A DNA stretch of 64,000 bases. Origin: a virus (lineage: Duplodnaviria; Heunggongvirae; Uroviricota; Caudoviricetes). How positions within the stretch are numbered: position 1 is the stretch's first letter; every line of letters starts with the position of its first letter. The notes under the pieces are model-generated. The model saw only the letters and a list, made by a program, of their open reading frames with translations, ran no database searches and was not told the origin of the DNA. Shown one piece after another: positions 20,789 through 55,088 of the stretch. The DNA lies in the IMG/VR virus record IMGVR_UViG_3300017649_000001, positions 24,798 through 88,797 of that record; one strand, written 5' to 3'. The position numbers were made by a program, and so were the translations under genes.

Positions 20789-20820
20789 CTGCATTTGCCG
20801 AATGCAGTCCTCAGTTTTTG
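20789..20820 (+). terminator. intrinsic terminator (member of the GCATT..GCCGAATGC hairpin family)
   Basis: ctgcatt-tgccg-aatgcag hairpin followed by TTTTT. Confidence 0.6.
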
Positions 20821-24749: not shown

Positions 24750-25433
24750 ATGGGCAAGGTATTTGCAATCGGCGACATTCATGGCCGTTTCGATCTTCTG
24801 GAGAAAGCTATCGAGGAGATCGAGGCTTGTAGCCACACCGGCGGTATAGTCGTCTTTCTGGGAGACTATATTGATCGCGGTCCGCAGAGTCGTGAAGTGA
24901 TCGAACGTCTAATGGCTGGGCCTTCGGATGCGGAGCGCTGGCATTGGATCTGCCTGCAGGGTAATCACGAGGACATGCTCCTTTCATGCATCGATGATGC
25001 AAAGATGGCGAACAACTGGTGGATGCCAAACGGTGGAGCGCAGACGCTAATGTCATACGGCGCGCAAAACGGCGATGAACTTTCGTCGGCACTACGGCGC
25101 GTCCCACAGCAGCACATTTCCTGGCTTCGATCTCTTCCACCGCTCTCCTATGACGACAATCGGATTTATGTTCACGCGAGCGTCGATGAAACCATCGATC
25201 TCGAGAACCATACTTCGAAGATTCTGCAATGGGATCGCTTCCCTGACGGCCACACCGGTGGCTATCGCGGAAAGCACATCGTTCATGGGCACACACCCCA
25301 TCGTGAGGTTGAACTGCACGAGGGGCGAACCAATCTCGATACCAACGCTGTCTTTACCGGCGTACTTTCTGTTGGCGTCTTCGATGATGATCAACCAGGC
25401 GGCCCGGTTCGCGTCATTTCCGTACGCGCATAA
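24750..25433 (+). CDS. Ser/Thr protein phosphatase (lambda PPase-like metallophosphoesterase)
   Basis: 'GDIHGRFDLL', 'GDYIDRGPQS', 'GNHE' motifs. Confidence 0.8.
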   Translation: MGKVFAIGDIHGRFDLLEKAIEEIEACSHTGGIVVFLGDYIDRGPQSREVIERLMAGPSDAERWHWICLQGNHEDMLLSCIDDAKMANNWWMPNGGAQTLMSYGAQNGDELSSALRRVPQQHISWLRSLPPLSYDDNRIYVHASVDETIDLENHTSKILQWDRFPDGHTGGYRGKHIVHGHTPHREVELHEGRTNLDTNAVFTGVLSVGVFDDDQPGGPVRVISVRA

Positions 25434-39902: not shown

Positions 39903-40313
39903 ATGTCGCACGTTCTCATTAAAGCCACGTCGGTTCTGTCTGCTATTCCAGCAGCGCTTCGACGCATCGAAAAGGCGCGTCAGAACGCCCACTTAGGTGC
40001 AATCGAGAGTTACAAGACCAAGAAAGTGTCGCGCGGTCTGTTTCGCACCGAAGTTGTCGTCGTATCGGATGAAGAGGCTGACGAAGCCTACACCAAGGGC
40101 GATCAGATGCTTGCCGATCTTTGGTCTGGCTACCCGACGCCGCGCCAGGAGAACGACGCTCATTACGATCGTCTCGTTCACAAGGTGAATGTTCTGCGCA
40201 ATCTTGCCACCGCCTCGATAGCTCACGGCGACGGCTACGTCACAATGACCGGAGATGATCTGCGCATTCTTCCGATGCCGTCGAACATTCTTCGTAGCGA
40301 GGAGGCGGCCTGA
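39903..40313 (+). CDS. hypothetical protein
   Basis: ORF. Confidence 0.45.
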   Translation: MSHVLIKATSVLSAIPAALRRIEKARQNAHLGAIESYKTKKVSRGLFRTEVVVVSDEEADEAYTKGDQMLADLWSGYPTPRQENDAHYDRLVHKVNVLRNLATASIAHGDGYVTMTGDDLRILPMPSNILRSEEAA

Positions 40314-40534
40314 TGCGTCCAGAGACAGCAGATTACAACCACGATATCGATGGCGATCTTCTCGAGGTGGAAGATTACCTGGAAGACGTGAAGCATGGCG
40401 GCTTTATCGACTACGACGGCTTCGGCTACGCGGTTCGCGACGGCATGGCAAGTAGAGAACTCCGTATCTACCCGTCTGATGGCGATCGCTTCATTCCCCT
40501 CGATGCAACTCATATAGATTGGTACAATCGATGA
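40313..40534 (+). CDS. hypothetical protein
   Basis: ATGA-overlap ORF. Confidence 0.35.
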   Translation: MRPETADYNHDIDGDLLEVEDYLEDVKHGGFIDYDGFGYAVRDGMASRELRIYPSDGDRFIPLDATHIDWYNR

Positions 40535-41016
40535 GCACCACCGATCTCTACATTCTCAATCAAAAGTCCACGCGTCATGTGGCTGAGTTTCGCAACGGCT
40601 GGGGTTCCGCGCCTCGTTGCTGGGATTATCTGGCGCTAAAATATCTCGGCGAGAAGACGGCCATGTTCGATCTGCGCGGAATGCAGCGCGTATGGGATCT
40701 TGCCGGTGATGAGCGCCTAACAGCAGATGAAAAGGTGGCTCTCATGTTCACCTTTGATCGCGCCTACATTCCGACCAAGCACCTGAAGGATGCCGGCGAA
40801 TCCATGATCGCATTCGGAAAAGCGTGCCACGATGGCGTGAGTGTCAATCACTGGCCGGCGATTGGAGAAAAACTGATCGAGCTGTCCGCTCAGAAGTTTC
40901 ATCATGTGGCACGGGGCATTTGCATGTCGCCAACTTCTGTGAGCGACAACTGGTGCCGGCCGAGCGAATGCTGGCTCACAGAAGCGTGGCCCATTCTGAA
41001 GGAGGATGAAGAATGA
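40531..41016 (+). CDS. hypothetical protein
   Basis: ORF; ATG at 40531 (the track starts at a TTG at 40519). Confidence 0.45.
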   Translation: MSTTDLYILNQKSTRHVAEFRNGWGSAPRCWDYLALKYLGEKTAMFDLRGMQRVWDLAGDERLTADEKVALMFTFDRAYIPTKHLKDAGESMIAFGKACHDGVSVNHWPAIGEKLIELSAQKFHHVARGICMSPTSVSDNWCRPSECWLTEAWPILKEDEE

Positions 41017-41600
41017 TTTTCAACCCCATCACGCATCCCCTCGCCTATCAAGCGAACATCTTTGCGGCTGCAGCTCATGCAGCCGTGGATCAGAAACGGA
41101 AATACACCACTGAGCCATATATTGTGCACCCACGCTCAGTTGCTCAGATACTGCGTAACTACGGTTACGACGATGATCTGATGTATGCGGCCGCCCTACT
41201 TCACGATGTAATCGAGGACACAGGTGTAACAACCGACGTGTTGCATCGGGAGTTTCATTTCCAGCCGTTTCGCAAGGCGCTCGTCAATATCGTGGATGAT
41301 CTGACCAATCTCCCGCAGGAGTTCGGCAATCGTAAAACCCGTAAGGCTGAAGACCGCAAGCGTCTGTCGGCGGCGAGTCCCGCGGCGCAAACCATCAAAT
41401 GCGCTGATATTCTCGACAACATCACCGGCATCAGCGACCGCGATCCTGAATTTGGCCTGGTCTACGCTCAGGAAGCGCTCGATACGCTGGCTGTTCTTCG
41501 AGAAGCGGACGAGAAGCTTCGAGAGCGTGCCCGGGAGGTTGCAGCGATTGAACTCGAAAAGTGTCAGTTCAAAAAGGCTTTACCGCTCAAGAGAGCGTAA
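41013..41600 (+). CDS. HD-domain (p)ppGpp hydrolase-like protein (small alarmone hydrolase, SpoT/Mesh1-type)
   Basis: 'HPRSVAQIL...AALLHDVIEDTGV' matches the SpoT/RelA hydrolase HD motif. Confidence 0.7.
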   Translation: MIFNPITHPLAYQANIFAAAAHAAVDQKRKYTTEPYIVHPRSVAQILRNYGYDDDLMYAAALLHDVIEDTGVTTDVLHREFHFQPFRKALVNIVDDLTNLPQEFGNRKTRKAEDRKRLSAASPAAQTIKCADILDNITGISDRDPEFGLVYAQEALDTLAVLREADEKLRERAREVAAIELEKCQFKKALPLKRA

Positions 41601-41885
41601 TCTTTCGGCGGGGTGTCATGGACCCGCCAGACGCGCAGCCGAAGGTCGTGTCACGTAAAACAACGTCGGCAGTCAGAGCAGTGGTCCTCCTTTCTACACT
41701 GTGATCTGATCGAATAGCGCACGATAAGCGCCAGGCGCTCCGCCAAGCGCCGCAAGATAGGCAAAGCGAGCTAATTCTCGCTTTGCCTACTTAGGTAAGT
41801 AACTTTCTAGTTATCTAACCACACGATCACCTGCGTGTTGTTTGATAGTTTGAAACATCAACAAAATCAGTGAGTGGAGATAAAC

Positions 41886-42158
41886 ATGTCTCGGAACCAA
41901 GACGTTCTCCTTGAACACAGCTACCAGGTCGTTACCTGGGATGAGTTTCACAATCGTCACAAGTTTGGCGGCGGTGGCGTTACGAACGATCATATAGCTC
42001 GCGCCGATTACATCCGCGCCAATTGCATGGATCCTGCAGAGAAGAACTCGTGGGTGATCTACGATCCGCACGACCATGGCGATGAAGGTCTGATGCTCAT
42101 CGGTGAGAACCTTCAAGAGCTGTGCGATGAAGCGGTTCGTCATCTGGAACTTAACTGA
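41886..42158 (+). CDS. hypothetical protein
   Basis: ORF after the GTAACTTTCTAGTTA motif. Confidence 0.4.
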   Translation: MSRNQDVLLEHSYQVVTWDEFHNRHKFGGGGVTNDHIARADYIRANCMDPAEKNSWVIYDPHDHGDEGLMLIGENLQELCDEAVRHLELN

Positions 42159-42526
42159 TGGCGCGCTACTACATTCTGGACAAGAACAAGAACGCCATTC
42201 CGGTCGATGATATTCGGCAGTGGGGAACAGCGTTCGAGGATTTTGACGCACGCTGCGTTGGCAAATTTCAGGCCAAACTTCATACGGTGTCGACCGTTTT
42301 CCTTGGCGTGAACCATTCCTTTGACGAGAACAGCCCTCCCCTACTTTTCGAGACCATGATCTTTGATGAAGATGGTCGCGACTGCGGCTGCGCAAGAACA
42401 TCGACCTGGAAAGATGCTGAGTACATGCATCGCCGAGTATGTCAGGAAGTTACGAAGCGTGAAAATGGTGGTGGCGCCAATACGCTACTGAGCGAGGTTG
42501 TCGATAAATTTCTAGGCGATATGTAA
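42158..42526 (+). CDS. hypothetical protein
   Basis: ATGA-overlap ORF; last gene before the ORF-poor region. Confidence 0.45.
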   Translation: MARYYILDKNKNAIPVDDIRQWGTAFEDFDARCVGKFQAKLHTVSTVFLGVNHSFDENSPPLLFETMIFDEDGRDCGCARTSTWKDAEYMHRRVCQEVTKRENGGGANTLLSEVVDKFLGDM

Positions 42527-44430
42527 TTGGCTTCTTTACCACACCTCTTATATTCGGTTCATATCAGTTGTTTAAGAACGACAATCAACCAAAGGTCCGT
42601 CAAAAGCCGAGTGCTTGCCTTTGAAAAAGCGTATATTGAGAGCAGCAAATATCGAAAATAAAAACGAGCTTTGAAGACCGCTGTTACCAGCGGTCTTCAA
42701 GACGCGCAGCCGGCGGTCGTGTCTGTGAGGGAATAACACCGGCAGTTGGTGGCTTAATTTCGTAAGCCGAACCAACCGGAGACTTTAGCAAGAGGGCTTG
42801 TAACCCTTGTCTTCGAGAACAAAAATGCACCGCGATGGCAGTACGTGTGGAACAAAAAACGTCTGCTCGTCATCTTCCGATGACGTGAATGGAGGGTGTG
42901 GTATGCGTAGTACCACACCCTTTTTCATGCTTTACCAGAACTTAACATCCCATTGACAAATGCCCTAAATCGTCAACTCCAGTAAATCAGCCATTCATTT
43001 TCAGTTTGCGAAAGTAGACCAATCACTTCGTCAAATCAGCCACCAGACTGACAGGACGTAAATCAGGCCAGTCGTGAAACGCCGGCCAGCTTGTCGCTGA
43101 CTTTACCCGGAGTTTACAAAACTGGTCTGAAAGACTTGTTTTGACCTTTTGTAAATCGACGCAGACGATCACAGGCTCGATCCGACAGATGAAGAGCGCA
43201 CTTGTACGCTAGGCGTCGCGGATCTTCACCAGTGAGCATTTTTGAAGATTTCAAAAGAGTAATTTCTCGATAGCACCAATTCAGATTCGCACAAGAGATT
43301 TCTGCGGTGCGTAACTCAAAACCGCCAATAATCAGAACGACTGGTCCAGCTTCCCGCGCCAACTCTCAGATAAGCAAATAACTAGATAGGTAATTACCTT
43401 TTGGCCGAGACAAGCAAATAACTAAACTGCGCGAAACCTCGAGATAATAAGGCATACAGACAAAACACTAAATAGGCAGATAGGTACGTAGTTAGATAGA
43501 CCATAGGAACGAACATCGAGAAGAACCACAAACGATAACGAACGTCAGAACCAAGAGAAGCAAGACTGCCGGTCATAAGAGAAAGCGACAGAGCGATAGA
43601 GAGGAAGATTCTCACGCAAAGGTGAAAACGATACATAGATGAGAAGCGCCACTAGAGAACCCGATCATAGATCGAACGCATGAGAAACGCCTTATAGAGA
43701 GCTGAAGGTGAGATATGCGTATAGGGGTGAGAAAGATGCGCTAGACAGAAAGAACCTGTGAAAGTGTGAGACGGAGGAAGTGCGAGCGGCGCCTATGGCA
43801 TTTTTCCATAAACCGCCCCAATGGTTCACCTCCGTCAGCCAATTCCGGAAAAATTAGGAACCAAGGCGTTTTCCCATGGGCACGACCACATAGGCACACA
43901 GGCTCGCCCATCCCCTGCCCCGTAACCGCACGCCTACACGTCTATAAAGGCACGCAGGTAAACAGGCACATAGGCTTTTAGGCATAAACCGGAACATTGT
44001 TGCACCTATATGGAAAGAAGTTTCCACAAACCGAGCGGGATCGTTCCCGGAGCTTTCTTCCCACACTGCGAAAAGAGCCAACTCTCTATATATTATATAA
44101 ATAGGTACATAGGCATTTAGGTATATTTGTATTTAGGGAGTTGGACGAAATTGCAGAACTCCCGGTAGCGCGACCAATGGTTTCCCCAGACCGGTTATAA
44201 CTACATGCCTAAGCGCCTAAATCGTCAAATAACTACTTCCATAGGCCGGCCACAGTTCTCGCCATACCCCGGCTCCCATGTATGGAATATTTTTAAGATC
44301 AAATAAGCCACGTTTCCATGCATATAAGCCGAATGTAACCCGTCACGCGTTTTGATACTTTCAAATCATAGAGAGCACGAGGCAAAGGCGCTCTAGTGAA
44401 ACGAATTTCAACTCTGATGAGGAAAGTATC
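42527..44430. other. 1.9-kb ORF-free repeat- and hairpin-rich noncoding region; candidate origin, centromere or ncRNA locus
   Basis: No plausible ORF; purine-only tract ~43400-43790; ATAGGYA tandem iterons; CCWWWGG heptamers. Confidence 0.6.
42893..42927 (+). terminator. intrinsic terminator inside the noncoding region
   Basis: ggtgtggtatgcgtagtaccacacc hairpin followed by CTTTTTC. Confidence 0.55.
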
Positions 44431-45294
44431 ATGACCGAAGTATCCAATCTGCATCTTGACGTTGTTTCCGCCAACGCAATCGCCAACGATGTTGACCTTA
44501 ACGATATCGACGCGCTGATCGCTGCGGCCGAAAAGGAAGAAGCCACACAGAAGCTGATCGACGAAGCCAAGCAGGCCGCACTTGATGCGCAGGCCGAGCT
44601 GGACCAGGCCAATGACGACGATACGGGCGAGGCCGTTTCTGAGACGACCGTTAATATCACGCCGGTATTCGAAGAAGGCGACATTCACCAGATGCGTAAG
44701 AGCGTCGACGGCAAGACCGTTGAAAAGATCCGCGCAGAAGTGACGGCACAGTTCGATCAGCGCACCAAGTTCCACGCTGACAACGATCCGCACAACACCA
44801 ATATCCAGAAGAACCTGGCGAAGTACCGTCAGCAGTTCTCCTCGCCGCACACTGCCGGTGTGATCGCAGCGTGCAAGATGGAGGTTTCTTTCATCAATCG
44901 TGTGAAGCGTGGCGAACAGTGCTTCAACGTCTATTCGGTCGAGAAGGTCTCCAAGCTGATCAATCAGATCGTGCTCGGTGTCGCCAACAACGCCTATAAC
45001 GACGCCATCTTCAAGTCGATGTGGAACTTCATGAAGGCGAAGGTGCCTTTCACCACAGAAGCAGCCAAGGCAGCGATCTCCGACCAGATTGCGGTCAAGG
45101 ACAAGCAGATTAAGGCGCTTCTCGTGCGCCATACTGTGAAGCCAGGTACTGCGTCCACACAGTCGAGTTCCTCGCTGCGCGCGATGGAAGTTCTGGGCAT
45201 TGTGCGCAACGCCGGTACTGAAGGTCGCCAGGTGTGGGTGCTGAACGATAATCCGCAGATGCGCGCTGTTGCAGCGAGCTATGGACTGAACTGA
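44431..45294 (+). CDS. hypothetical protein
   Basis: RBS gaggaaag; strong terminator downstream; the overlapping 404-aa minus ORF is judged spurious. Confidence 0.5.
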   Translation: MTEVSNLHLDVVSANAIANDVDLNDIDALIAAAEKEEATQKLIDEAKQAALDAQAELDQANDDDTGEAVSETTVNITPVFEEGDIHQMRKSVDGKTVEKIRAEVTAQFDQRTKFHADNDPHNTNIQKNLAKYRQQFSSPHTAGVIAACKMEVSFINRVKRGEQCFNVYSVEKVSKLINQIVLGVANNAYNDAIFKSMWNFMKAKVPFTTEAAKAAISDQIAVKDKQIKALLVRHTVKPGTASTQSSSSLRAMEVLGIVRNAGTEGRQVWVLNDNPQMRAVAASYGLN

Positions 45295-45318
45295 GTTAGG
45301 AGTGAGACGAGCATAATA

Positions 45319-45352
45319 GGGGCCGGAGTTACATCTGGCCCCTATTTTTATG
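45319..45352 (+). terminator. intrinsic terminator
   Basis: ggggccggag...ctggcccc hairpin followed by TATTTTT. Confidence 0.65.
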
Positions 45353-45658
45353 CGTGATTGCTGACCATTGGATTTTTGGGGAACCAAGGCGAATGGCCTA
45401 TGGGTTGAGAAGCTGCGGGAAGAAGGCGCGACCAATGGGAGCCGCGGGACGGCGGAACGCACAATTAGGCAAATAGGTATTTCGGCATATAGGCTTGTAG
45501 GCACGCTTCTCACCTTCCGGCCATAGGTTGACGCATATCTCGCGTTGGAGCGCGCCAGTGACGGTTTATGCGCGTTTTATGATATGCCGTTTGTAACTAC
45601 GTAGTGATTTAGCTATTTAGTTATTGTCTGAAACACAAACGAGAAAGATAGCCTCACC

Positions 45659-45970
45659 ATGAAGATCACCTTTAAAGTCGAGTTCCACGAATATGACGAA
45701 ATGAACGACGCCCTGTTCGCCATTGTCAGACGAGTCGACGCCAATGAGGAATTTGAGATCTATAATATTCGCGCTCATTTCGACACAGCGATTTACGGCA
45801 TCGAATACGCTCTTCCAGAACGCGCAGAAGCCGAAGTTGATTACGCACCAACAATTCTGCTGTTCTTCATGCGCGCATTCAAAGACCGCTACGCCAAGCT
45901 CGATCACACCGCATCGCCTGCAGATGTGTTTGGTGAGGAACTTGTGTTCACACTCGACATTGACGCCTAA
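45659..45970 (+). CDS. hypothetical protein
   Basis: ORF; terminator aaaagcagc-ttcg-gctgctttt follows at 45974-46000. Confidence 0.45.
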   Translation: MKITFKVEFHEYDEMNDALFAIVRRVDANEEFEIYNIRAHFDTAIYGIEYALPERAEAEVDYAPTILLFFMRAFKDRYAKLDHTASPADVFGEELVFTLDIDA

Positions 45971-46233
45971 CGCAAAAAGCAGCTTCGGCTGCTTTTCTTT
46001 ATGTGACGATCGACCATAGGCCAGGCCATTGGTCATCAGGCCGTTTCCAGGCGCCAGGCCAATGGTTATTTACCTATTTCCCTAAATCCCTACCCGCCTA
46101 TAAGCCTATCTCCTCACGGGACACTTCCGGACGCTCGAGCATTTACCGCATTCGGCTCACTACATGCCGATTTAGTTATCTAGTGATTTAGTTAGAATAA
46201 ACATATCGAAACACTCACTAGAAAGTCACTCAC

Positions 46234-46617
46234 ATGAACAAGATCGAAGCCACCATCCGCCAGCACGCTCGTATCATCGCAGACGCTGACGAAATGCTGG
46301 ACGCGCTCGAAGATATCTCGCCAATCGTGGCACAGCTCAACATCGTCGATCGCCCGAAGAAGGACACGCCGGTCTCGCGCAAGCTTCAAATCATCAAAGA
46401 GATCCGCGCTCGCTGTGATGCAGCCATCATGAACATGCTCGACCAGATCACCGATTACGACCTGATCGACAAGATTTTTGCCGCTGCCAACGAAATCAAT
46501 GCCGAGCGTGCTGCTGACCGTGCGGCACTTGCCAAGATCAAGCGCGAGCGTATGGAGAGAATGAACGCCCATCGCGCCAACGCACAAGTCGCCGATCAAG
46601 TCGCTGTCGCAGCCTGA
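46234..46617 (+). CDS. hypothetical protein
   Basis: ORF after a palindrome-motif variant; hairpin terminator at 46635-46671. Confidence 0.45.
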   Translation: MNKIEATIRQHARIIADADEMLDALEDISPIVAQLNIVDRPKKDTPVSRKLQIIKEIRARCDAAIMNMLDQITDYDLIDKIFAAANEINAERAADRAALAKIKRERMERMNAHRANAQVADQVAVAA

Positions 46618-47076
46618 GACCACACGAGCGCGCCACGTCATGTGCAGCGCGCTCTCTTTTGAGCACTAGTTAGGTTTTCAGGCAAATAGGCAGATAAGCA
46701 TGTGGCAGATACCTATGGAACTAGATAACTGAATAGGCAGGTAGGCAAATTGCCTATGGAATATCGCCGGACGAGGATTTCGGATTTTTGGGGAACGGCA
46801 GTCACCACATAGGGAGCCGGCGTATGATGGCACAAAGGCGGGCTAGGGCGGCTTCCTATGGTGAGCGCCCGCGGGAGGCGGGGAATGGCATAAATCCATT
46901 CCCCTTATAGGCCAGGCCATTGGTATCGCTAAACCACCAATGGACTTGCGGCCTATGGCAATCAGGCCGATTTCAAAGCCAACCCCATCAAAATGCGCCA
47001 TTCCTCCGGGGGCGATAGGAATGGCGCACGTATTTGACAGGTAATTGCCTATTTAGCCATATAGGCGTTTAACTAC

Positions 47077-47307
47077 CTAGAGCAAGGCAAGCGGGTCGTC
47101 AAAGAAACGCTTTCGCAGATTGTGGGGCACAGAATTATCCTCGCAAAAGGGCAGCCCCAGAAGATCCATCATAAGGTTGGTCGATTCCGCGGATTCGCGC
47201 ATGGACCGAAGTCTGTCCCGTCGTGCCCGGTCAAAAGCCAGTTTCTGGCGTGCCGAGAGATTAGGGCGGTCGAAAATGGGCAAAGTTGCCATATCAGCGC
47301 ACCTCAC
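47077..47307 (-). CDS. hypothetical protein (minus strand)
   Basis: Overlaps the upstream minus ORF by 14 nt. Confidence 0.3.
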   Translation of the reverse strand: MRCADMATLPIFDRPNLSARQKLAFDRARRDRLRSMRESAESTNLMMDLLGLPFCEDNSVPHNLRKRFFDDPLALL

Positions 47308-47488
47308 ACGCGAAAATCGTTTCCATCGTGACGTTTCCCACGTGGGTCACTTCGGTGAGCTTCTCGCGCTGGAGCTGGTAGCCAATGCAATCTTCCTGGG
47401 TAAGACCCGTGTCGAGAATGAACTCCTCGGATTGCGTCCCGTGCGTTGGCGACGAAAAGAGCGTTATGGCGATAAGAGCGAATTTCAT
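47294..47488 (-). CDS. small secreted protein (minus strand)
   Basis: Signal peptide 'MKFALIAITLFSSPTHG'; palindrome-motif variant upstream on the minus strand. Confidence 0.35.
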   Translation of the reverse strand: MKFALIAITLFSSPTHGTQSEEFILDTGLTQEDCIGYQLQREKLTEVTHVGNVTMETIFACEVR

Positions 47489-47750
47489 TGTGAGTTGCCT
47501 TCGTTGTTTGTCACTAATCGTTTAGTGATTTTGTTATAACTGATTAGTGAGTAATGAAAATCGGCTTATGAAGTTTCTCACATGGTAATTTCTAAGCAGG
47601 GAAGGGCGCCCGCGACCGATGAATCTCCGGATACGAACCAATGAGCCTGGCTAACCGTCCCCGGCAATTCCAATGGATCCGCCACTTTTGGATTTTTGGG
47701 GAACGGATGCAAATCCAATCAGGGGAACCGGTACATAGGTACATAGGTCT

Positions 47751-47832
47751 CGTGTGTGCGTGCGCATGTGCGTGCGCATGTGCATGTGCATGTGCATGTG
47801 CATGTGCATGTGCATGTGCATGTGCATGTGCG
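47751..47832. repeat. hexanucleotide microsatellite (CATGTG)n, about 9 perfect plus 4 imperfect units
   Basis: Tandem gcatgtgcatgtg...; gives artefactual His-Ala and Cys-Ala repeat ORFs on both strands. Confidence 0.9.
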
Positions 47833-48055
47833 CTCATGCGTCATGCGCACGCATGATCGAGATAACTAAATAGATAGTGATTTATTCGCTCAAAAACACG
47901 TCATAGAAGCGTTTCAGCGCGTTTCTAGTATCATTTGTCATCTGAAGCTAGAAACGCGCTCTAGAGTCAAATTTGAGCGTTTTTCGCAAAGCGTCATAGC
48001 GTGTCAATGATAGCGTTTCGCGCATGAACGCATGACACATGCGCAAAACGCAAAA

Positions 48056-48127
48056 AAGCGCTCATATAGAGCGCTTTGAAGCTTTAGCAGATAAGAAAAG
48101 CGCTCTATTGCTAGAGCGCTTTCAAGT
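48056..48127 (-). terminator. two tandem intrinsic terminators for the minus-strand gene 48131..48730
   Basis: Hairpins aaagcgctc-atata-gagcgcttt and aaagcgctcta-ttgc-tagagcgcttt; each is followed by a T-run when read on the minus strand. Confidence 0.55.
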
Positions 48128-48130
48128 CTG

Positions 48131-48730
48131 TTATGCAAAGAATTCTTGCATCTTTGCAAGCGCGTCTGCATCTTTGTTAATTTTGAAGAAATTAACTCTT
48201 TCTTTTCTCGAAACTAGATCAAGAATTTTGAAGAAACGCAATGCAACGCTTGACGATGACGCTTGCGTGTCGCAAGTGCGAGCGTCTTTTACTTCATTGC
48301 GCTGATAGACAAGCGCTTTCAATTCGTCTGTAAGAACAATCTTTTCATCGACATTATTCTTTGTGCAAGCAAGCTTGAGAACGCTTGACGTGATATTTTC
48401 TTTATCATTCTTTACATGCAACAAAACAGTTCGCGTCACACATGCATGAAAGTCTTGCATCTTTTTGCTGTCATAAAACATGACAGAAAGCATTTCGCGA
48501 ATTTTGTTCAACGCATAGATATTATCATTCAACATAGATGCATCAGCGTTGATTGTGTCGAGATATTTTTCAACTTTCTCATATGAAACTAAATTCATCA
48601 GCTTAATCATGTTAGCTGTATTGTTATCAAGCTTGTCGCTTGCGCTTTCTTTCTTGCGTGCTTCAACGCGAGCGTTGATGATTGCAGCGTATTTGTTGAG
48701 CGTAGCAGTTTTTGCGTTGTTCTTCGACAT
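48131..48730 (-). CDS. hypothetical protein, AT-rich minus-strand gene (likely horizontally acquired)
   Basis: 199-aa Lys/Asn-rich ORF with GC far below the genome average; palindrome motif upstream on the minus strand; tandem terminators downstream. Confidence 0.5.
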   Translation of the reverse strand: MSKNNAKTATLNKYAAIINARVEARKKESASDKLDNNTANMIKLMNLVSYEKVEKYLDTINADASMLNDNIYALNKIREMLSVMFYDSKKMQDFHACVTRTVLLHVKNDKENITSSVLKLACTKNNVDEKIVLTDELKALVYQRNEVKDARTCDTQASSSSVALRFFKILDLVSRKERVNFFKINKDADALAKMQEFFA

Positions 48731-49134
48731 GTGAGTAACTTTCTAGTTAGTGAGTTAATATTTCGTCGTTTCGTTTCGACAATTTGTTTATAGCGTGCTG
48801 TTTTGAGAAAAAAAAGCGAAGTCTTACAAGTTTTGCTAAGTCTTTTAGGGGATGCCTAGGGCCAACACAGCACTCCGGGCAACTAACCTCCGCTCCTTTT
48901 AAACCACGGATATCATTTATATTTATTCCCGGCACCGATATTCAACCAGTCAGGCTTCCGGATATTCCAGAGCGCGCCGATTTACTTAACCTCCGCTTTG
49001 CACTGTTTACCCCATACCACACGTCCAGGATCCGTTGCCCATCCTCCGCACCCTCAATAAATAACTAAATAGTTATTGATTTTCTCAAAAGTGAGGACTA
49101 GGTTGAGGAAACCGAACCGATCAAGAGGATCGAA

Positions 49135-49662
49135 ATGACGAAACCGCATACAGGGCTACCCGTCGCAGGATATCAGTCGCAGAGCGATGAAGCGGTGGCC
49201 GCCGTAAACCGCAATAAAGTGCTGGAAGAAGTGGCCCTTCGGGCCATCGAGCGGGCAGGGGAGGAGCTTGAAGGGCTGGATCCTCGTGCGCTGGCACTTG
49301 CAAAGACCAAGATGCAGGAAGCCTTCATGTGGTTCAATCGAGCCATCTTCCAGCCCAAGCGTATTGAGGGCGATCTGCCAATCGATGTGAGCCTGTTCTT
49401 CGACGAAGGATTGGTTATCGACCACAAGCTTCACGGCAAGTTGCAGCTTTTTCCGTTCACGGGCACAGCCGACAGCGCCGCAGCGCTCGCCAAGAAGCAT
49501 TCCTCTATCGTGACCTACTATGATGACGATCTGGATCGTTGGAGCGTCAGTGTGTCGTCGATTGATGGTGGAACTGTTGAGCTGGCAATTGGCGATTACC
49601 TCGCTATCGCTCGTTCAGGTCGCGCAATTGCGATGCCCAAAGAGACGATTGAGCTTCCATGA
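49135..49662 (+). CDS. hypothetical protein
   Basis: ORF after the palindrome motif; ATGA overlap with the next gene. Confidence 0.45.
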   Translation: MTKPHTGLPVAGYQSQSDEAVAAVNRNKVLEEVALRAIERAGEELEGLDPRALALAKTKMQEAFMWFNRAIFQPKRIEGDLPIDVSLFFDEGLVIDHKLHGKLQLFPFTGTADSAAALAKKHSSIVTYYDDDLDRWSVSVSSIDGGTVELAIGDYLAIARSGRAIAMPKETIELP

Positions 49663-50795: not shown

Positions 50796-51095
50796 TCAGC
50801 CTTTTTCTTTGCTCTGACGACCGCGCAGCTCTTTCTCGACCTCAATAGCCTGAATGTGCTCTGACCGGCGCCAGTCGTTAAAAATCTCAACGAGGAAGTC
50901 ACGCATCGACATACCGCGCTGTGTGGCGTGCATTTTAAACTCGCGGTGCCAATATTCCGGCATATTGAAGGTCATCGAGACGATCTTCTTTTGCTTCATA
51001 TTGTCGGCAGCGGTTGGTTTCAGAGCCGAAGCTGCGCCCAAGAAACTCTTCCGACGCTCAGACGGCTTGATTGGAACGGGGGAGTCGTCAGACAT
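50796..51095 (-). CDS. ribbon-helix-helix DNA-binding protein (ParG/CopG-like)
   Basis: 'KIVSMTFNMPEYWHREFKMHATQRGMSMRDFLVEIF' is an RHH fold; immediately downstream of ParA on the same strand. Confidence 0.55.
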   Translation of the reverse strand: MSDDSPVPIKPSERRKSFLGAASALKPTAADNMKQKKIVSMTFNMPEYWHREFKMHATQRGMSMRDFLVEIFNDWRRSEHIQAIEVEKELRGRQSKEKG

Positions 51096-51741
51096 ATTCT
51101 TCCTCTACCAGCTTGTTCACTTTGCGAATGATTTCGTCCATCAAACCCATGGCGCGGTCGTTTAGCGTCTTGAAATTGCTTTCGCTGATAGCCCGACCGG
51201 TGTTTTGCGCCATCTGATAGCCAATTTTATAGGAAAGCTCGCTCTCGGCGATCTGGAACTCGGCTTCGCTGATGTAATTGCGAGCATCTGTAACAGCGTT
51301 TGTCGATTGATCCGACGTCTTGTTCAGGACGAACAGAATACGATGGTTCTCGACACCTTTGTTTCGCAGCTCCATAGCAAAGGCGACCTGCGGCTTCAGA
51401 TCATCAAATGTCAGACCCGTCGGAATGATCACAAGCGAGGATTGCTGAGCGATTGCGAGCGAAGTGATATCCGAGTCTGGCTTGCCATCGGCAACGACCA
51501 GATCCACTTCTTCGTGCTTGATAGCTGTCGGCGAATTGAAAGGCTTCACCTGGATAGCAGGTTCAACGCCTTCTGCCGCGCGTATCTTGCCCCAATCGGA
51601 GGCCGTGTTCTGACGCGTATTGAAATCGGCCAGCAAAACGCTCCAATCGTTCTTCACAAAGGTATGCGAGATCAAACGAGCGAGTGTTGATTTTCCGACG
51701 CCGCCCTTTTGCGAAAGACAGGCGATGACGAGATCGGCCAT
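51088..51741 (-). CDS. parA: ParA/MinD-family partition ATPase
   Basis: Deviant Walker A 'LSQKGGVGKST'. Confidence 0.85.
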   Translation of the reverse strand: MADLVIACLSQKGGVGKSTLARLISHTFVKNDWSVLLADFNTRQNTASDWGKIRAAEGVEPAIQVKPFNSPTAIKHEEVDLVVADGKPDSDITSLAIAQQSSLVIIPTGLTFDDLKPQVAFAMELRNKGVENHRILFVLNKTSDQSTNAVTDARNYISEAEFQIAESELSYKIGYQMAQNTGRAISESNFKTLNDRAMGLMDEIIRKVNKLVEEEYV

Positions 51742-52011
51742 TTCTACACCTCTGTAGTTAGATAACTATCTGCCTAGATAGCTTCATTCCTACATAGCTA
51801 AGTAAGCCAATTCGGTTAACGGGTCATTAAAAAAATATAATAGGTAAATGCCTATTTAGTGATTTAACTATTTACTTAGTGAGGAATCGGCTTTATATTC
51901 AGGAACAGTTGATGTTGCTGTTGACTATCGGGGAGAGGGGGTTACGCCTCTGACCCTTCTCCCCACTCTCTTATGGGCACCTCCTCCTATATCCCATACT
52001 TAAATGGCCGC

Positions 52012-53662: not shown

Positions 53663-54406
53663 ATGATTACGCCACGATATTTCGACGTTTCTGTCGGGGA
53701 ATTGCGCAAAAATCCATGGAATACGAACATCGTCAGTCCGGAAAACGAGCTGAAGATACGTAACTCCATCAAGCGCAACGGAATTTTTAAACCTATCCTC
53801 GTTCGCGAGATTGCAGGCGAGAGTGGTTACGAGATCATTGGCGGCGAACATCGATGGGAGCAAGCCGTCGCGCTCGGTTTCACCGCGGTTCCTGTCTGCA
53901 ATCTCGGCGCTATCTCCGAGAAGCAGGCCAAGGAGATTGGTATCATCGACAATGCGCGTTACGGCGCGGATGACAGCCTCGGTCTTGCTGAACTTCTGAA
54001 AGAGATATCGGACAGTATCGAGGATATTCAGGAATTTCTCCCATACGGCGAAGCTGATCTTGATGATTTGTTTGGCTCAATGAGCGCTATAGATCTCGAC
54101 AGCCTGGGGATTGACGACGAAGCAGCAGAAACCGAAGCGGAATTGCTAACCGAGCTTGCGCTGCCGACGCCCAAACCGTCCAAAACTCACACAATCATGC
54201 GCTTCAAGGTTTCTCTCGGTGACGCCGAGCGCCTTACTGCGCTCGTTGCAAAGACCCAGAAAGAGCAGGGCTTGAGCGGCTCCGAGGATCTGATCAACGC
54301 CGGTGATGCCCTTGTTCACCTTCTGAGCGAGCACCTTTCCACCAGCAAAGCCAAGTCCCTCGAAGAGCAGTTGGACGAAGCATTCAAGGATGAAACCAAT
54401 GAGTGA
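53663..54406 (+). CDS. ParB-N/sulfiredoxin-like nuclease-domain protein
   Basis: 'ILVREIAGESGYEIIGGEHRWEQAVALG' ParB box; divergent from the helicase gene with a palindrome motif in the shared promoter region. Confidence 0.65.
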   Translation: MITPRYFDVSVGELRKNPWNTNIVSPENELKIRNSIKRNGIFKPILVREIAGESGYEIIGGEHRWEQAVALGFTAVPVCNLGAISEKQAKEIGIIDNARYGADDSLGLAELLKEISDSIEDIQEFLPYGEADLDDLFGSMSAIDLDSLGIDDEAAETEAELLTELALPTPKPSKTHTIMRFKVSLGDAERLTALVAKTQKEQGLSGSEDLINAGDALVHLLSEHLSTSKAKSLEEQLDEAFKDETNE

Positions 54407-55088
54407 AATCGATCATTCAAAGCAGGCGATCGAAATCTGGGATATCGATAAGATCAAACCCTACGAGCAGAACGCCAAGATTCACGATGATGCACAGGTG
54501 GAGAGCCTGTCGCGCTCGATCAGTAAGTTTGGCTGGTCCTCGCCAATTGTCATCTGGACCGACGGCGTAATCATCGCCGGGCACGGTCGCCGTCTCGCAG
54601 CCCTTAAACTCGGGCTGAAACGTATCCCTGTCATCGTTCGCCGCGATCTGACGAAGCTTGAAGCCGACGCCATGCGCATCGCTGACAACCAGGTCGTCAG
54701 CAAGAACTACGACACCAATATTATGTCCGACGAACTCCGTCGCATTAATGCGGAGCTGGAGATCGGCGGCGGAGATTTCGAGCTTTTCGATCTCGGCTTC
54801 ACATCCAAGGAGCTTGATATTCTGGTCGAGCCTCTCGAGGAAATGGATCTCAGCGTCTTCACTGATGATTTAAGCGAAGCATTGGCCGAGCAGCGCGAGA
54901 AAAACGAGGCGATTGTCGCTTCCATTGACGAAACCGCAGCCCCAGTCGGCGACGCCTTTGGCTTCAAGCGGGTGACAATTGAGCAGTCTCGTGAAATCCG
55001 CAACTTTATGCGTCAGATCGAGACGGTCGAAGGACAAAAAGGGGCGGACGCCCTTTTGGCTTTCTTTCGTAAGTACATCACTATCTAG
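54390..55088 (+). CDS. ParB-N-domain protein (second copy)
   Basis: 'PIVIWTDGVIIAGHGRRLAALKLG' ParB-N motif. Confidence 0.65.
   Translation: MKPMSEIDHSKQAIEIWDIDKIKPYEQNAKIHDDAQVESLSRSISKFGWSSPIVIWTDGVIIAGHGRRLAALKLGLKRIPVIVRRDLTKLEADAMRIADNQVVSKNYDTNIMSDELRRINAELEIGGGDFELFDLGFTSKELDILVEPLEEMDLSVFTDDLSEALAEQREKNEAIVASIDETAAPVGDAFGFKRVTIEQSREIRNFMRQIETVEGQKGADALLAFFRKYITI

Follow-up and report, generated by a model that had tools for sequence, protein, structure and literature searches.

Early promoters at the leading end of the genome or within a terminal repeat are a familiar arrangement in phages such as T7 (A1-A3), T5 (pre-early genes in the left terminal repeat) and SPO1 (a host-takeover module that lies in the terminal redundancy). 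In T4-type phages, promoter-early stem-loop (PeSL) cassettes combine a terminator with a promoter and are found at the junctions of gene replacement, gain and loss (PMC2839356, PMC4122927). Here we describe a short repeated intergenic module in a 64,000-nt stretch of a Caudoviricetes virus (IMG/VR record IMGVR_UViG_3300017649_000001, positions 24,798 to 88,797; hereafter the window). Its source is a metagenomic contig of 112 kb, and the virus is a siphophage or phage-plasmid of about that size with distant kinship to the Rhizobium phages B1VFA, RHph_N1_10 and RHEph10. The module, usually a T-rich tract followed by RGGAAC and then C or G, is a real, conserved and undescribed element (no relevant paper emerged when the literature was searched for the motif), and it most likely functions as a variation on a type of phage signal that is already known. 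The reading that we put first, tentatively and on comparative evidence, is that the modules are terminator-insulated immediate-early transcription-start cassettes of the terminal repeat.

The exact 15-mer GGATTTTTGGGGAAC occurs at window positions 45370, 46782 and 47690, always on the + strand, and no other 15-mer outside a (GTGCAT)n microsatellite occurs at least three times in the 64 kb, the chance expectation for exact copies of one given 15-mer on both strands being ~1e-4. With a degenerate copy on the left, the modules are copy 1 (CCGGAAAAATTAGGAACCAAGGCG, 43845-43868), copy 2 (TTGGATTTTTGGGGAACCAAGGCG, 45368-45391), copy 3 (TCGGATTTTTGGGGAACGGCA, 46780-46800) and copy 4 (TTGGATTTTTGGGGAACGG, 47688-47706), all on the + strand. 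An earlier inspection of the bare letters (the sequence-only reading) had reported these three exact copies and the degenerate one, as well as the extensions of the first two exact copies (GGGGAACCAAGGCG at 45378 and GGGGAACGGCA at 46790), and all of them are present as it described; the copy at 47690 extends to GGGGAACGGAT. An extra bare core (GGGGAACC, 47722-47729, + strand) lies 18 nt 3' of copy 4, and tandem cores were also seen in N1_10, RHEph10, B1VFA and L078. Copy 1 falls within the predicted terminal repeat, ~60 nt from its left end, and lies 585 nt 5' of a conserved gene for a 287-aa protein (44431-45294).

A second short motif of the form CC(W)nGG accompanies the module, starting 9-14 nt after GGAAC in 19 of 31 module instances. 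Its window representatives are CCCATGGG after copy 1 (43873-43880, where CCATGG begins 12 nt after GGAAC; CATAGG follows at 43888), CCTATGG after copy 2 (45397-45403, 12 nt after GGAAC), CACATAGGG after copy 3 (46806-46814, where CATAGG begins 11 nt after GGAAC) and CCAATCAGG at 47715 after copy 4, which is followed by two CATAGG (ATAGG at 47735 and 47743). The sequence-only reading had placed a CCWWWGG or ATAGG element behind each copy, which holds with small corrections for the partners of copies 1 and 4. It had also called the surrounding intergenic DNA otherwise unrelated, which is not the case, as the flanks of the copies have several other short motif families in common. All nine window copies of CCAATGG/CCATTGG and 10 of the 11 copies of CCTATGG/CCATAGG fall within 43.5-47.7 kb, and because of this confinement the whole region is special and the module is not alone in that. 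Nine of the 11 CCTATGG/CCATAGG sites are inside the predicted repeat, one (43501) is 285 nt to its left, and one (7589) is unrelated. A third conserved block, CCAATGGGAGCCGCGGGACGG (45432-45452, + strand), follows copy 2, and a related block, CATAGGGAGCCGGCG, is found at 46808-46822 after copy 3; counterparts of the third block are GGGAGCCGTGGGA in L064 and CCATGGGAGCCGGCG in L079.

For the comparison with relatives, the 287-aa protein is the sole good anchor, and it has few homologues. Identity to this anchor is 97% in L065, 66% in L064, 39-42% in L066, L068 and L069, and 38% in B1VFA, X66 and V1VFA-S, and the module is also found in N1_10, RHEph10, Y2_11 and prophage-plasmids of Phyllobacterium and Ancylobacter. 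The (T-rich)-RGGAAC-S module occupies syntenic positions in every retrieved relative, across identities of 37-97% in the neighbouring protein and GC contents of 44-63%. Around each homologue of the 287-aa gene, one module copy lies in the long upstream non-coding stretch, one just after the terminator of the gene and at least one after the next small genes. Counterparts of copy 1 are CCCGGAATTTAGGAACGGCCAGC in B1VFA and CGGAATTTCCAGGAACCACGAGCG in N1_10, with others in L079 and L066; in copy 2, GGGGAACCAAGGCG is identical in N1_10 and is represented by AGGAACCAAGGCGAATG in L064; and the form GGGGAACGGCAG of copy 3 is also present in B1VFA (two copies), L069 and L068. The invariant core is RGGAAC followed by C or G, usually with the T-rich tract on its 5' side, and the recurring extensions are ...GGAACCAAGGCG and ...GGAACGGCAG. 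Within the predicted repeats of nine non-redundant lineages, RGGAACS occurs 37 times on the + (gene) strand and twice on the minus strand (p = 3e-9), whereas outside the repeats the strands are balanced. The complete B1VFA genome has its intergenic + strand cores, GGGGAACGG (record ~39,940, ~41,340 and ~42,180) and TAGGAACGG, at 39.9-42.3 kb only, and 8 of its 11 CCTAGG sites are clustered in 2.3 kb of the module region (record 39993-42248), the other three lying outside. The A/T core of the partner differs by lineage, being CCATGG in N1_10 and L079, CCTAGG/CCAAGG in B1VFA, CCAWTGG/CCTATGG in the window and CCTAATAGG/CCAATTAGG in L064. A lack of conservation in related phages, which the sequence-only reading had named among the outcomes that would speak against it, was not observed: sequence, position and strand are kept in all relatives found.

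The position of the module region in the genome can be judged from B1VFA, which is reported to have fixed ends and a direct terminal repeat of 3,605 bp, and from V1VFA-S, whose published repeat is 3,939 bp long (PMC12509600). Two landmarks flank the region in the window, namely GCGGCGCC (43786-43793) on the left, at which the + strand changes from purine-rich to pyrimidine-rich, and GAAGTCTTA (48818-48826) on the right. The left landmark, GCG(C/G)CGC(G)CC, and its switch from a purine-rich and T-poor to a pyrimidine-rich + strand are kept in 8 lineages, all those that cover the site, while GAAGTCTTA occurs once only, at the same syntenic place, in every locus covering that region, with GGGGATGCC ~25 nt further on in most lineages. 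The distance between the landmarks is 3,598 bp in B1VFA (GCGCCGCGCC at record ~39,648 and GAAGTCTTA at record ~43,246) and 3,933 bp in V1VFA-S, each within 6-7 bp of the published repeat, and because of this agreement in spacing the landmarks are probably the physical ends of the genome. The alignment of B1VFA and V1VFA-S contains a 332-bp insertion and small nearby indels, and the 334-bp difference in repeat size is matched within 1 bp only if the repeat starts just after the T-poor stretch; the same fit requires that the repeat ends between the start of a conserved 199-aa gene and the next gene. The direct terminal repeat, or early region, of the window phage would thus probably span ~43786-48826 (~5.04 kb), a range that holds all module copies, all CCAWTGG sites and the small early genes, and the module copies of all lineages likewise lie inside their predicted repeats. 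We dropped the idea that the 3.6-kb L065 is a separately assembled terminal repeat, as its ends miss the conserved landmarks.

Immediately to the left of the predicted repeat, a ~300-nt stretch of the + strand is depleted in T (43500-43790, 4-9 T per 50 nt), a compositional feature that was also observed in B1VFA, N1_10, L066 and L079. Further left, non-coding DNA carries five iterons of the form (C/G)T(A/C)AATC(A/G) (GTAAATCAG-like, 42965-43158); the equivalent place carries CCTTTACA five times in B1VFA and X66 and repeats of the GTTGACA-like kind in N1_10. The iterons and the T-poor stretch are candidate packaging signals, and the iterons may be binding sites of the terminase (pac sites).

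Short strand-specific motifs near genome ends are also known from the terminal repeats of the T7 group and from the nick-site consensuses of T5 and phiKMV-like phages, which occur a few times per genome and whose function is poorly understood. The modules resemble them in being short, strand-specific, few and located near or inside terminal repeats, but the motif sequences are unrelated. A polar signal acting at the level of the DNA of linear ends could be considered, either a Chi-like site that restrains the host AddAB/RecBCD nuclease coming in from an end or a single-strand nick site of the T5/phiKMV type. The single-strand orientation, the low copy number, the location of all copies inside the predicted repeat near the physical ends and a G-rich core like that of known Chi sites agree with it, but copies of a direct repeat share one orientation, and only one end would be protected. 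In addition, the association with terminators and with junctions of cargo genes, which the known sites lack, would be left unexplained. We regard a Chi-like or nick-site role as very improbable.

The relation of the modules to terminators is clearest at copy 2. The 287-aa gene has an intrinsic terminator (45315-45349, + strand; a 13-bp stem followed by UUUUU, -23.7 kcal/mol, z = -6.1), and copy 2 begins 20 nt past the T-run of this terminator. A terminator also stands just before the module in L064 (1203-1228) and in B1VFA (L001 6651-6672), and direct reading places one before the counterpart of copy 2 in N1_10, RHEph10, L066, L068 and L078. Copy 3 lies ~120 nt 3' of a terminator-like hairpin of a 127-aa gene (46626-46660, + strand; -18.2 kcal/mol, then UCUCUUUUG). 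Copy 4 is divergent from the upstream or promoter region of the minus-strand genes at 47488-47077 and is followed by non-coding DNA. The adjacency that characterises PeSL cassettes is present at copy 2 and absent at window copies 1 and 4, while copy 1 of B1VFA and of N1_10 does have a terminator-like hairpin and a T-run on its 5' side. Other explanations based on structure were rejected: as a terminator part, the module has only a weak hairpin before copy 3 (-10.3 kcal/mol, z = -1.8), the other copies having none that is consistent, and a G-quadruplex would find four close G-runs in the copy-3 cluster of B1VFA only. Downstream of copy 3, where a structured small RNA was considered, a hairpin (46880-46904) has z = -1.4.

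Comparison with the 97% relative L065 provides the evidence for a role of the modules as junctions. The two share 96-98% identity in their non-coding DNA, interrupted by patches that open exactly behind copies 2 and 4, with divergence setting in right after ...CCAAG in copy 2 and right after GGGGAACGG in copy 4. In the first patch the spacers are swapped while blocks and spacing are kept, in the order module-N8-CCTATGG-N27/28-CCAATGGGAGCCGCGGGACGG, and thus L065 retains CCTATGG at the distance seen in copy 2 despite a wholly different spacer. The gene at 45659-45970 is not in L065. More generally, the gene content beside the modules differs between relatives, and gain, loss and replacement begin at the modules.

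These properties resemble those of PeSL cassettes, which are also small composite intergenic elements in which a terminator stem-loop adjoins a conserved module for early starts. They too recur in a single orientation among small, variable early genes and are positioned exactly at the indel and replacement junctions of close relatives. PeSL promoters, however, fit the early consensus of host sigma-70 and their activity is documented, whereas no known sigma consensus clearly fits the modules, which are known from sequence alone; the modules are also confined to the terminal repeat and have the lineage-specific CC(W)nGG companion. The likeness to T7, T5 and SPO1 lies in several start signals of the same direction near a genome end or in a direct terminal repeat, alternating with terminators and serving small genes for host takeover or anti-defence (in the window an Acb2/Tad1-like gene just beyond the predicted repeat and, in L064, a Rap1a-domain gene inside it). 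Those phages use strong canonical sigma-70 or sigma-A promoters, whereas the modules reach only 5-7 of 12 matches to the alphaproteobacterial consensus and their place in a repeat is deduced from the landmarks.

What suggests the start-cassette reading is that the modules keep a fixed orientation, follow terminators or sit at a divergent junction, carry a T-rich tract upstream and have a second block shortly downstream. They are also confined to DNA of the probable genome ends and serve as junctions in cargo exchange. According to this hypothesis, the T-rich tract and the RGGAAC core would be a UP-like and a -35-like element and form the upstream half of the cassette, which would be placed just past a terminator or at a divergent junction and aimed into the genome from its left end. 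The CC(W)nGG/WWGGG block 9-14 nt downstream would complete the cassette as the melting and start region, possibly also serving as a lineage-specific operator. Once the DNA is in the cell, the RNA polymerase of the host would initiate at the cassettes, and the small genes of the terminal repeat (the 287-aa gene and variable cargo) would be transcribed; copies 3 and 4 might produce non-coding or antisense RNA across iteron-rich spacers toward convergent minus-strand genes. The repeated cassettes may double as recombination points for the swapping of cargo genes. Both the promoter activity and the terminal-repeat location are what we infer from these comparisons, and the sigma factor is left unassigned.

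Several observations weigh against the start-cassette reading. The gap between GGAAC and the second block is not constant (9, 11-12 or 14 nt) and falls short of a normal -35/-10 spacer. The consensuses of sigma-54 and EcfG-type sigma do not fit, and that of alphaproteobacterial sigma-70 is matched at only 5-7 of 12 positions. In L066, GGGGTAAGG replaces GGGGAAC at three of four sites, and this change of the core, together with the lineage-specific W-core of the partner, is easier to explain by a co-evolving phage protein than by a conserved host polymerase. A weak hairpin with a T-run lies between copy 1 and the 287-aa gene (44036-44049). Copies 3 and 4 are followed by no plausible conserved + strand open reading frame and are faced by convergent minus-strand genes, and a small protein encoded 3' of these copies was rejected on the same ground. 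The module as an ordinary gene promoter was rejected too, since each gene already has a different promoter-like motif, WWGCCGAW...ATAACTAA, 70-150 nt ahead of its ATG, both inside and outside the region.

With regard to individual sigma factors, the best matches to CTTGAC-N16-18-CTATAT at the four copies score 6, 7, 5 and 6 of 12, and the best sigma-70-like fit of copy 2 is TTTGGG-N17-CTATGG, scores that lie within the ordinary distribution across the window. An E. coli-type promoter scan gave no match at the modules, and no LexA (GAAC-N7-GAAC) or CtrA (TTAA-N7-TTAAC) box matched within 43.7-48.9 kb. The sequence-only reading had raised a sigma-54-like promoter, which did not stand up: some copies do have GG dinucleotides and a nearby GC, but none of the four copies is overlapped by a GG-N10-GC arrangement that agrees with TGGCAC-N5-TTGC at 6 or more of its 10 positions, the bases of the putative -12 (10-13 nt beyond GG) differ in every copy and lineage, and no gene for an enhancer-binding protein was seen among the scanned proteins. 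A sigma-54 (RpoN) promoter is therefore extremely improbable.

GGAAC after A/T-rich DNA is a hallmark -35 element of many regulons of extracytoplasmic function (ECF) sigma factors, including the RpoE, EcfG and SigH/SigR types. Nearly all module copies have this core with an A/T-rich tract on the 5' side, and the phage family encodes a small protein of the sigma-70 family in which only region 2 is detected, so that GGAAC might be the -35 of an ECF-type promoter read by a host ECF sigma factor or by the small sigma of the phage (B1VFA_132-like). On the other hand, GGAAC-N16-17-CGTT has no match in the window and nothing RpoE-like (TCNNA-type -10) matches in the region, the copies do not agree in the bases where the -10 would be expected, and the AAC core is lost with GGGGTAAGG in L066. 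A phage sigma factor would also be expected to act at many middle and late genes, yet the modules number a handful and the intergenic + strand cores of B1VFA occur nowhere else in that genome. We consider an ECF promoter improbable. As for the candidate factor, B1VFA_132 (L073 48760-49404; Sigma70_r2 alone detected) is encoded beside CobT/VWA-like and AAA (CbbQ/NorQ-like) proteins, and the equivalent part of the window phage is outside the window.

In the main alternative, which is possible although we have doubts about it, the module would not itself be a promoter element, and a DNA-binding protein encoded by the phage and acting on the terminal repeat would recognise it in a strand-specific manner. 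Such a protein could serve in repression and immunity of the plasmid-prophage state, in partition, in packaging or in stepwise DNA entry, and candidates are the 287-aa protein, the 199-aa protein encoded on the minus strand, the Arc-like ribbon-helix-helix (RHH) protein near ParA and the two ParB-like proteins. This explanation agrees with the finding that the window and B1VFA each have the module in a single ~5-kb region, with the dense arrays of short motifs around it (including TAGG iterons phased at 8 bp and CC(W)nGG), with the variable spacing of the partner and the poor fit to any sigma consensus, with the presence of ParA, RHH and ParB-like genes and with relatives that are whole 114-118-kb contigs in bacterial assemblies. 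Moreover, the lineage-specific variants (CCATGG, CCTAGG, CCAWTGG and CCTAATAGG, and the altered core of L066) suggest co-evolution with a factor. However, an orientation bias of 37:2 and a place just behind terminators would be less typical of repressor or centromere sites than of signals for transcription, neither the 287-aa nor the 199-aa protein yielded a demonstrable DNA-binding domain, and the GGAAC core is kept across lineages whose other motifs changed. A hybrid, in which polymerase reads the conserved GGAAC and a repressor reads the lineage-specific palindrome, is attractive. The general proposal of the sequence-only reading, a specialised promoter or a protein-binding site, is supported by the conservation described above, whereas the sequence cannot tell the two apart.

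It is also conceivable, though rather unlikely, that module and CC(W)nGG together form a recognition code for a phage factor that acts on the terminal repeat only. This factor might gate stepwise entry, protect the ends or switch between lytic growth and the plasmid-prophage state, and the length of the A/T core of the partner (2, 3 or 5 bases) would co-evolve with it. If a phage factor does read the module in this manner, it would represent a new kind of cis-regulatory control in a terminal repeat, with no described counterpart.

Several further sequence features were observed around the modules. Arrays of AGG(C/T)/TAGG with an exact 8-bp period are present at 43948-43987, 44103-44126, 45463-45503 and 46672-46695, L064 has TTAGG arrays, and an inverted ATAGGTAAATGCCTAT lies upstream of parA (51840-51855); the AGG(C/T)/TAGG arrays may be bound by the RHH protein or by some other small protein. 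The (GTGCAT)n/(GTGCGTGCGCAT) microsatellite (47755-47830) lies just 3' of copy 4 and is not in L065, and the Logan contig L081 breaks within it. A separate promoter-like motif, WWGCCGA(T/A) followed by a ATAACTAA- or TTTAGTTA-like sequence, occurs genome-wide 70-150 nt before start codons, with window examples at 20794, 29760, 31069, 37821, 39139, 44325, 45583, 46163, 47568 (minus strand) and 51894 (minus strand); its equivalents are ATAAGCCGAT in L064, GTGCCAGAT in N1_10 and CACCTCGATAC in B1VFA.

The large open reading frames encode SbcCD, ribonucleotide reductase, RtcB, a helicase, the terminase and the portal protein. The portal shares 56-59% identity with the portals of the ~115-122-kb Rhizobium siphophages RHph_X66, B1VFA, V1VFA-S, RHph_N1_10 and RHEph10 and is more distantly related to those of SSU5-like phage-plasmids. 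To the right of the module region are genes for ParA with the Arc-like RHH protein (50796-51741, minus strand), two ParB-like proteins (53663-55088, + strand), and Acb2/Tad1-like and HslV-like proteins. Relatives occur as whole contigs of 114 kb and 118 kb in genome assemblies of Ancylobacter rudongensis and Phyllobacterium myrsinacearum (L078 and L079), which supports a probable plasmid-prophage lifestyle and is consistent with the published phage-plasmid features of B1VFA (PMC12509600). Anti-defence-type cargo comprises the Acb2/Tad1 hairpin-domain protein of the window (49135-49662, just beyond the predicted repeat) and the Rap1a-domain protein of L064 (1552-1929, inside its predicted repeat). 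The 287-aa protein found no relatives in PDB, Pfam and NCBIfam searches, and its predicted structure is poor (predicted local distance difference test score, pLDDT, of 50). The conserved 199-aa gene (48131-48730, minus strand) has a GC content of ~40% versus 52% for the window, and a word-index search with its protein returned only itself, with no detectable family. It adjoins an AT-rich spacer (47860-48130) with CATAGCG/GCGATAGCG-type repeats and bidirectional terminators, and the gene and spacer may represent a regulator or an origin region. DNA searches for close and for remote matches in phage records found nothing for the module region, IMG/VR contained no relatives (the exact 15-mer returned only 60 single chance matches), a scan of metagenome contigs found no relatives, and Rfam and tRNA scans of the entire window had no match.

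To our knowledge, the group of ~105-125-kb alphaproteobacterial siphophages and phage-plasmids to which this virus belongs has had no transcription map and no known regulatory signals. It now gains a strand-fixed module, landmarks of the repeat ends and a separate promoter-like motif as targets. Furthermore, the module and the landmarks suggest how the DNA that enters the cell first, with its anti-defence and host-takeover cargo, may be expressed and how its cargo genes may be exchanged.

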